Shown piece after piece: positions 48,301 to 56,804 of a DNA stretch of 64,000 nucleotides. This DNA is from Octopus vulgaris. Its lineage: Eukaryota. How positions within the stretch are numbered: position 1 is the first letter of the stretch; every line of letters starts with the position of its first letter. The stretch lies in NCBI GenBank assembly GCA_951406725.2, contig OX597815.1:129146001-129210000 (forward strand), written 5' to 3'. Below the pieces are notes generated by a model. It was given only the letters and a program-made list of their open reading frames with translations, made no database searches and was not told where the DNA came from. The translations under genes and the position numbers were made by a program.

Positions 48301-51300
48301 CCAAGACCTGCCTCATGACAGTGCCAGCTGAAATAAAGCAGGTCTTGAGAATGATTTGTTATTACAAGTTCATTACAAACATGCAGATAAACATTTGTGC
48401 AAAAGGAAAATTCTAAATAACTACCTCTACTAATCCAAGAAGGATAGGGATCATAAATCATCGAGTAAAAGACAATTTCTATTAAATGTGGTTTCAAAAG
48501 TTCCAGATGAATAAAGAAGCCAGGGAGACATTAATAATGAAAAGTTTGATTTTAAAACATTTTCCTTCTAAATAAACATATATTAAAATACTTTTGAACA
48601 ATTAAAGTAATTTCCAGAAGGAAAATGAATACATCTAATGCATAGCACCATCATCATCATCAATATTTAACATACGTGTAACATAAAGATAGTTGAATTA
48701 CATCCCTTCGCTTGAAAATGCCAACAGGTGATGTGGCAGCCAACTCCTATATATTCCAAGGTTTTTCATCTCTCTCTCTCTCTCTCTCTTACCATTTTGG
48801 ACACCAAGAAGCACAAATCTCTCTTCTGCCTAAGGCACAGACACATGCAGTTACTGTCGTTCTAACGTCTGCCTAAGCCGACTTCTTATCACCATTGCTA
48901 CAATGACACCTGCTTAATAGATTTCAGACCATTGTCATTCTCCTGCTTTATCATGGCAACTTGTTCAGCAACTAATTCTATTGCCACAGCCTACAAGGAA
49001 ATTAAATGTCATGTTACCAACTTCGCTGGCACCTGCTATAATTTGTTACAGTAAGTCCTAGCCATGAACTGAATATATTTTCTGAATAAACCTCACATAC
49101 AACACTACACATGTTTCTGTTACCTTCACAATTTTGTCTCGCAGCTAATTAGCTCTTATTTGTCATTTAAAAAGATCCAAGACACATGGATATCTGATTT
49201 CTTACATCATGTAAAAACTGTGTTTGTACCATCTATTCTAAATAAATATTATTTGTTATGGTAAACAGCCTTCATCTTCTTATACACACCTGACACACTA
49301 AATACATTTTCCATGCTGGCATACACTGCATGGCTTGACAGGATCTGGCAAGGCAGGGGCCACACCAAGTACCATAGTCTGTTTCAGCTTAGTTGGAACC
49401 TGGTGTGGATCTTGGCCTTGCATAGGTAACATAATAACAAAGAATAAAATATAATGTAATTTCAAAATATCAAATTAATTAATGTAAATCAACTTACTTT
49501 TTAGAACAGTTGTGTATATTTGTTAAACAAACTGTGTACAAAAAGCGTTTGCGTCTTTCCCAGGTAACTATAATATTTCTTTCCTTAGTATCTATAGTAA
49601 AATTAGAAGCAGCTTTAGGATCTGGAAATAAACAAAAGTTTGTATAATTACTCTAATAATATAAGGATGCTCAGGGATATTTTAATAAAGTAATGTAAAA
49701 TTATATGATGTTTTATAGCATTAAAATGTTAACTTAACGAGACAAATATAATCCTTTCAGTAGTTCACATTATAGCTTGAGATAAAACTGCATGCTTCCC
49801 AGTAAAAATGTAAAATCCAAAACTGAAATGCAAGATATTTAGTGAAGTGTCCACAATTAACTTAATTCAATTATACAATAGATAAGTCTAACAGATATTC
49901 TGTTTAAACAGTTTATGTGTGACACACTACTGAGATTATCACATCAAAAAGGAAATCTTCCAGCTCTAATATAGCTGCAATTTAACAACTGAAAGAGAAA
50001 CAATTACTGACAGATACTGTGATAATTAATAAGGGATGAACAGTGAAATAGTTTGTTTTCTAGTTCTAAACCAGGCATAAGCAACATTTTTCTGAACTGC
50101 ATGAGACATGACTCACCATCAAGTGAGTCACCTAGTAAAAAAATTCAAGCTAATTTTTTGTTAGGGAACCATTCAGAAAGTCCCGCAGGCCTACAGTTTG
50201 ACTATGGCTGTTGTTCAAATATTTTATGAAATTTTACAATACCAGAACGGGCTAAAGATATTGTTACAAGAAACAAAAACAGAAAGAATTAGTATATTAG
50301 TAGACCAGCAACACAGTTTATGGGTCATAACTAAAAGAAATTCCAATATTTCTGATCAAGTTAAAATATTTCAAGTTAAAGTCATTACACATTAAAAACA
50401 ATTGATGTTCTGTATAGTTTGTAAATGTCTAAGGAAGATTCATTTCAAATACTTACAAGTTACGAAACTATCAGTGGCAGGTGATTCACTGTATACCATA
50501 TAAGAACGGGTCCATATTTTTACCTCATATTTCTCACCATCATCTAATGATGTTAATTCAATGCTTTGCTTATTGCTTGTTCTGTTTTTGTATGGGTGAG
50601 AATCCCTTTTATATTGAATTAACCATTTACTTCCTTGTGATAATGTCTTGTTAAAACTCCATGTGATGTTAGCACTATTTGTTGTAATACTGTGTTTAAG
50701 CACATTAGTTGGTGGCAATGGAGCTGAAAGAAATCAAATAAAATATTGTTCAATATTATGTCTTCACTGTGTCATTGGAGAAACCTGCCATTTTAATTTT
50801 TACATTATTGTACAATTAGACAACAAGAATGATTTGAACAGTGTAACATCATTTTCAATAATAATGATTACATACAAGAAATTTAATTTTGAGGTTCAAA
50901 AGATATTTTCTGTTTAGCCTTTATCATAAATTTCTAACATTTATCTTATTATTATACAAAATAATCCTGAGAACAATGGTACTAGAGGCATTGTGTTACA
51001 CTAACTGAAATAGATATTTGTATTAAAAAAATTATCTAAAATGAGAAAACAAGATAGGCATATAACTATTCAAACAAGGGTGTATCAATATACAAACAAA
51101 TCAAATCTATTAATATTAACATGTGTAAAAAAAACTTACAGACTACTACAGAGTCTCTATATGCACTGCTGTTCTTCCCATAAGCATGAACAACAATAGA
51201 TACAGTATAATTCATTCCAGGTGTCAGGTTATTGAATGTGGATGTATTTGCAGTTTGACTACAAAAATAGAAGATTAATAGTTTACATGTATTGAACACA

Positions 51301-56804: not shown

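Follow-up and report, generated by a model that had tools for sequence, protein, structure and literature searches.

Probable patchy gene conversion and diversifying selection in the repeated ectodomain of an octopus Ptp10D-type receptor phosphatase

The window analysed here, a stretch of 64,000 nt of Octopus vulgaris DNA, carries an array of repeated fibronectin type III (FN3) exons belonging to a receptor phosphatase gene. Coordinates refer to this window unless prefixed by L001, L002, L004 or L016, which denote neighbouring stretches. We consider it somewhat more probable than the alternatives taken together, at roughly 0.55, that patchy gene conversion has homogenised the copies while selection favours changes of residues and glycan sites on the outer half of the ectodomain. 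An earlier note on this DNA had proposed a recently amplified, diversifying ectodomain of an R3 phosphatase, arguing that the exons diverge by replacements while the introns stay nearly identical. The R3 assignment and the splicing of the copies are borne out and diversifying selection on the ectodomain is probable, but the route through exon divergence exceeding intron divergence fails.

Gene identity and the cassette array

The translation of exon A1 matches part of P0001 at 100% identity; the source label of P0001 is O. vulgaris PTPRH/Ptp10D-like phosphatase, and P0001 maps exon by exon onto the window and L001, L002, L004 and L016. Together with the sole other member of its cluster, P0002 from O. 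sinensis, it is a public annotation of the window gene. In P0001 a signal peptide is followed by FN1, A-1, B-1, A3, B2, A2, B1, A1, B0 and A0, then by one further FN3, a PTP_tm region, a transmembrane helix and one PTP domain. The ectodomain consists of FN3 repeats only (Pfam fn3 and Dep-1 FN3 families) and carries 49 sequons. One hydrophobic run (~1133-1157), an intact WPD loop, an intact HCSAGVGR motif and a C-terminal YxN can be read off the protein, which has a single Y_phosphatase stretch at residues 1226-1457. Judged by these sequence features, the octopus gene encodes a receptor phosphatase of the R3/Ptp10D type and agrees with the definition of R3 receptor-type phosphatases (RPTPs) in PMC5336234, phosphatase activity being predicted.

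The octopus protein also falls inside the protostome Ptp10D clade (98/95) in a PTP-domain tree of 34 hand-picked rows with a midpoint root, where its branch is long (0.52) and its nearest sisters are three unnamed proteins (95/93). Genome searches found no paralogue of the octopus Ptp10D gene, giving at least one locus, and an ectodomain search (7 matches, 7999 scored) found no other cephalopod protein outside the P0001 cluster. The C-termini of P0001 and P0002 differ after residue 1493; the P0001 tail, DDEGIHVDST, resembles the DDEGIHVA of the unnamed relatives, and the tail of P0002 may therefore be an alternative last exon or a model error.

All exons lie on the minus strand. As placed by sequence and P0001 mapping, the array begins with the FN3 exon A3 (56538-56804; 267 nt, phase 1:1, P0001 residues ~268-356), and continues with Ba2 (53749-53872; 124 nt, the first half of FN3 domain B2) and Bb2 (53347-53465; 119 nt, the second half, with domain phases 1:2:1). 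It then runs through the FN3 exon A2 (52642-52908), Ba1 (51545-51668) and Bb1 (51140-51258) to the FN3 exon A1 (50457-50723), whose protein is the same in P0001 and P0002. These seven exons are bordered by AG/GT and, once joined, give a single open frame, in agreement with the claim that frames and splice sites are intact. A2 is predicted to fold into seven strands (pLDDT 67.5) and its model matches FN3 structures, with a TM score of 0.82 to the FN3 Tencon. Older paralogous exons follow, namely Ba0 (49498-49621), Bb0 (40745-40863) and the FN3 exon A0 (39629-39886), so that the ectodomain is made of repeated A and B cassettes of several ages. Beyond them lie the juxtamembrane exon (21022-21483; PTP_tm PF18861, the sole genome match found), the transmembrane-coding exon (17808-17993, tblastn limits) and five exons for the cytoplasmic region and the single PTP domain (249-13732, tblastn limits), the last two of which are in L016.

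The window holds several other repeats. A decayed mariner-type transposon with terminal inverted repeats lies on the plus strand in the A3-Ba2 intron (54721-55769; its Transposase_1 match, E 1e-4, is below threshold), and its depth of ~1000x single-copy in four DNA runs indicates a high-copy family. On the minus strand, 54413-54711 is a partial extra copy made of the Ba acceptor and the first 29 nt of Ba (54413-54441), and marks the junction of a ~570-nt local duplication. This truncated third Ba start has an intact acceptor ~570 nt before the true Ba2 acceptor, without a donor. The Ba0-Bb0 intron contains an 18-nt tandem repeat (42836-42976; 7.8 copies, 98% identical), while two-copy tandem repeats of 169 nt (11540-11879) and 136 nt (37462-37711) belong to a dispersed family found at several places in the window.

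The copies are highly unlikely to stem from assembly errors or haplotypes, or to remain unspliced. The whole array is spanned by no single read or contig, which is what would favour an artefact, but the O. sinensis orthologue P0002 has the same order of three A and two B domains, which shows that the array is real and older than the split of O. vulgaris and O. sinensis. According to PMC13093632, the O. vulgaris species complex dates within 2.5 million years. The only matches to A in the genome are the three array copies. Three A haplotypes occur in run X20: one piece matches A1 exactly, another has six A3 letters, and the third is an A2 allele. For each of the four B differences, both states are found in independent runs. 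Every junction type is spliced in four runs that were taken as RNA by guess and in which splicing was then seen, the stretch compared excluding A3: A-Ba0 in 3/4, Bb-A in 4/4, Ba-Bb in 3/4 and A-Ba in 3/4. Loose contig ends in these RNA runs match Bb-1 and Bb0.

Depth, which is no measure of copy number, varied among runs, the ratio of B contigs to single-copy contigs being 1.7 in X1, 1.3 in X2, 2.6 in X5 and 0.9 in X10. The X10 contigs (organism D) at 53056-53721 and 56166-56980 show about single-copy depth over B and A. Organism D possibly has fewer cassettes, with the same reservation about depth.

Exon and intron divergence among the copies

The exon differences were counted correctly in the earlier note. 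The three A exons vary at 17 sites spread over 14 codons; 15 of these sites are nonsynonymous and 2 synonymous. Between A1 and A2, 14 nt differ in 11 codons, each of which encodes another residue (12 nonsynonymous and 2 synonymous steps), and codon 47 reads R, E and K in the three copies. The B exons differ at 4 nt, 4/4 nonsynonymous, one of them in a junction codon. An N-I-S sequon does distinguish B2 from B1, as had been observed, but it was probably not newly created: P0002 has the sequon in both B copies, which makes a loss in B1 likelier than a creation in B2.

Taken alone, the replacement excess among the A paralogues (15/17) is within chance (p 0.08-0.26), and with the B paralogues added it becomes 19/21 (p 0.03-0.11). 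Nonsynonymous and synonymous sites were counted over kappa 1-6, with 3-4 indicated by the 34 transitions and 19 transversions among intron differences. No variation occurs at any of 13 presumed core positions (p 0.07). Of the variable A codons, 8/15 fall in residues 32-53, in strands C-C' (raw p 0.009); this clustering is not significant after scan correction (p 0.12-0.14).

The intron comparison is where the earlier argument breaks down. Two introns are indeed almost unchanged: 51259-51544 against 53466-53748 shows 0/283 substitutions and a 3-nt poly-A indel, and 51669-52210 against its copy shows 3/542, one of these at the breakpoint. However, the statement that introns stay nearly identical set the A exons against these B-side introns and omitted two diverged ones. 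The introns that flank A differ at 53/571 (9.3%) and at 19/416 (4.6%, plus 2 indels), compared to 14/267 (5.2%) for the exon. The exon does not exceed its own flanking introns (p=0.28), nor all introns of the unit (75/1812, 4.1%; p=0.42), and an excess holds only against the introns originally chosen (p=7e-7). A local effect remains, since the A1 and A2 exons differ at 14/267 compared to 1/300 in their 150-nt flanks (p=0.0002), weaker in A1/A3 (p=0.07) and A2/A3 (p=0.09); six flank widths were tried and the outcome depends on the width.

Divergence between the two units is strikingly patchy, and the introns form a mosaic ranging from 0% to about 13%. Each 100-nt bin has 11-14 differences at 49885-50285, 0-2 on either side of A, 5-6 within the exon, then 8-10 at 50986-51185 and 0-2 over B, and the intron dispersion is 6.8 compared to 0.9 (0/20000 permutations). 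In terms of tracts, an old-diverged intron patch at 49885-50273 (11-14 substitutions per 100 nt against the A2 copy) adjoins an exon-centred island at 50274-50895, whose flanks differ from those of A2 at 2/183 and 0/172 and whose exon differs at 14/267. Next come a diverged intron patch at 50896-51139 (19 substitutions and 2 indels against the copy ending at 53346) and a homogenised tract at 51140-52210 that has 7 substitutions against 53347-54414 and would reflect a recent conversion. This patchiness rules out a single recent duplication, and repeated conversion could produce it.

Exon-centred similarity extends to older cassettes. The Bb-1 exon (L001:6484-6602) lies 30 kb upstream of Bb0, yet 40617-40938 and L001:6348-6676, 30 kb apart, are 88% identical over 331 nt. 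Within this island the exon differs at 12/119 (10 nonsynonymous, 2 synonymous) and the flanks at 16/201 (p=0.54), compared to 27% for the Ba exons paired with Bb-1 and Bb0. Moreover, 5/9 of the array differences between P0001 and P0002 are swaps to a residue of a sister copy. The mosaic of identical and diverged tracts and these residue swaps point to concerted evolution by gene conversion. Patchy conversion therefore explains the intron identity better than the recent amplification first proposed, an explanation that the earlier note itself had named as counting against its reading; conversion is favoured because O. sinensis has the same three A and two B domains and most of the copy-specific residues.

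Divergence between species and among alleles

P0001 and P0002 differ at 27 residues, 24 of them in the outer 607. By region, there are 15/267 in the unique N-terminus, 9/340 from A3 to B1, 1/525 from A1 to the membrane and 2/361 inside, and the contrast between distal (24/607) and proximal (1/525) ectodomain is strong (p 5e-6). The fastest part is thus the unique N-terminal domains, ahead of the repeat array, whereas A1 is unchanged between the species and A1 with the older B0 and A0 cassettes shows 1 change in 256 residues. The first two unrepeated FN3 exons (L002:6490-6709 and L001:8706-8975) differ from P0002 at 14/186 residues. Sequons are gained or lost in 8/24 distal differences, compared to 13% expected (p 0.008, post hoc).

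As a baseline we used three nearby single-copy contigs from run X1, in which 1/1232 nt departs from the window sequence. X1 carries the P0002 residue at six visible sites. Compared to this baseline, which presumes that X1 stands for the P0002 lineage, replacement divergence is raised in the array (p 0.002) and at the N-terminus (p 5e-7); the site counts are approximate and the baseline introns lie 15-30 kb from the N-terminal exons, whose dN is ~2.8%. A distal gradient is also seen in relatives: per 100 residues, the P0011/P0014 pair differs at 16-33 in the distal part and mostly at 0-4 close to the membrane and intracellularly, and two snails show a gradient as well. P0013 has an independent young FN3 duplication at residues ~197-370 (65% over 80 aa).

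Alleles of A2 vary at its copy-specific codons. At codon 39 the window has ACA (T), runs X1 and X19 have AAT (N), and X14 and X20 have CGT (R), alleles 2-3 bases apart; codon 43 is L, S or P across runs; and X2 has K47 and V50, so that codons 47 and 50 are E/K and D/V. The allele list covers 40 of 200 difference rows and 32 of ~26,700 pieces, and its contigs may be chimeras of copies. Among the 40 difference rows listed, new exon changes in reads are 9 nonsynonymous to 1 synonymous (p 0.17-0.32 alone). Pooling paralogues and alleles of the young array gives 28/31 nonsynonymous changes (p 0.01-0.07), and adding Bb-1/Bb0 gives 38/43 (p 0.006-0.07), where each p varies with the fraction of sites taken to be nonsynonymous. 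For old paralogues, dN/dS is highest in B-1/B0 (1.2-1.6) and 0.4-1.2 in the other pairs. Taken together, diversifying selection probably acts on the ectodomain.

Competing explanations and known systems

The most serious competitor, a possible though clearly less probable reading, is relaxed constraint combined with conversion, under which the distal FN3 domains would be a glycosylated spacer whose surface residues drift near neutrality and random tracts would have made the contrasts. It gains from the 15:2 ratio of the A paralogues lying within chance, from an exon divergence (5.2%) that matches the average of the unit's introns (4.1%, p 0.42), from dN/dS at or below ~1 in most old pairs and from the 49 ectodomain sequons. 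Relaxation is harder to reconcile with orthologue replacement divergence that appears well above local intron divergence, with a codon that has three alleles separated by several bases (A2 codon 39), with the pooled nonsynonymous excess and sequon turnover, and with A1, B0 and A0 being nearly frozen between species (1 change in 256 residues).

Maintenance of old functions is an unlikely account. Here each A copy would hold a fixed job and purifying selection would remove conversions that cross the exons, with no ongoing diversification. The identity of A1 in both species, the copy-specific residues that the two mostly have in common and the identical flanks around a divergent exon fit such a history, and the same logic has been published for gibbon L/M opsins (PMC3213168). 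Fixed roles sit poorly with the polymorphism of A2 at its copy-specific codons, the homogenised B copies, unique N-terminal domains that are the fastest of all, and residues of one copy partly seen in another's position (T325S, N511Y). We rejected a further candidate, in which the A flanks are conserved as an RNA structure that serves splicing or A-to-I editing, and hard-wired edits account for the A/G differences. In its favour, coleoids commonly recode RNA and, read on the coding strand, 9/17 of the variable A-exon sites are A/G. Yet the A/G share of nonsynonymous transitions (7/9) fits opportunity (62%, p 0.27), the predicted folding of the exon with its flanks is no better than that of 40 shuffled sequences (z +1.25), and no editing-type difference is prominent in the four RNA runs, whose contigs drop rare variants; this candidate is very improbable.

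Under the preferred reading of conversion with selection, unequal crossing over would have built the array, and conversion, often exon-centred, would keep resetting it and move variants between copies. Because they are favoured, replacements at N-glycan sites and in or near strands C-C' would escape the reset, while the inner half and the enzyme would stay constrained. By analogy with CD45, the driver would most likely be a pathogen or another fast-changing extracellular partner. More speculatively, and rather doubtful as it stands, Ptp10D in coleoids may be a CD45-like arms-race receptor, with outer FN3 domains repeatedly duplicated and shuffled by conversion, with balancing selection maintaining polymorphism at contact residues and glycan-shield sites, and with cassette number varying between species. 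Fly Ptp10D acts in axon guidance and, with Sas, in cell competition, and by analogy a cell-identity partner is possible for the octopus receptor.

The gene is already annotated, its family is known, and conversion and diversifying selection are textbook processes. What is new is that intragenic repeats have remodelled a Ptp10D present in single copy, whose ectodomain bears a CD45-like signature; a literature search, outside whose reach most subscription journals lay, found no publication on the octopus gene. Should selection be confirmed, this would be a case of an invertebrate R3 phosphatase converging on the CD45 mode of evolution. The gene would then be a candidate octopus surface receptor engaged by pathogens or in self/non-self recognition, of which few are known, and A2 codons 39, 43, 47 and 50 and the eight sequon sites would be residues to test. 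For genome scans, the case is a caution that choosing converted introns can yield exon-above-intron divergence in tandem repeats.

Compared to known systems, the octopus gene has in common with R3 RPTPs (Ptp10D and vertebrate PTPRB/J/H/O) the FN3-only ectodomain, the PTP_tm region and the single PTP domain with its WPD loop, as well as the C-terminal YxN and the 1:1 and 1:2:1 FN3 exons described in PMC5336234. The same source reports species-specific FN3 loop codes between human and mouse PTPRH. The octopus ectodomain differs from its relatives in being only 19-24% identical to those of other molluscs and in having internal repeats 98% identical over 80 aa, whereas a window scan of named mollusc and annelid Ptp10D found none above 32% (20/20). 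Fish PTPRJ (P0003, P0004) and alligator PTPRB (P0121) also have young FN3 repeats (58-100% identity), of independent origin and in models that may include assembly artefacts.

With the tandem L/M opsin genes of primates, the array has in common that conversion makes introns more alike than exons, as PMC3213168 describes. In the opsins, purifying selection acts on separate genes whose tuning sites are fixed, whereas the octopus repeats lie inside one gene and are polymorphic.

CD45 belongs to another RPTP subtype, with two PTP domains. What CD45/PTPRC and the octopus gene have in common is a fast ectodomain, a conserved cytoplasmic part and polymorphic alleles, a pattern that in CD45 has been read as pathogen-driven (PMC4379584). 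CD45 has known viral ligands; in the octopus gene, a dN/dS above 1 is only suggested. Unlike CD45, the octopus receptor would have diversified through intragenic cassette duplication and conversion.
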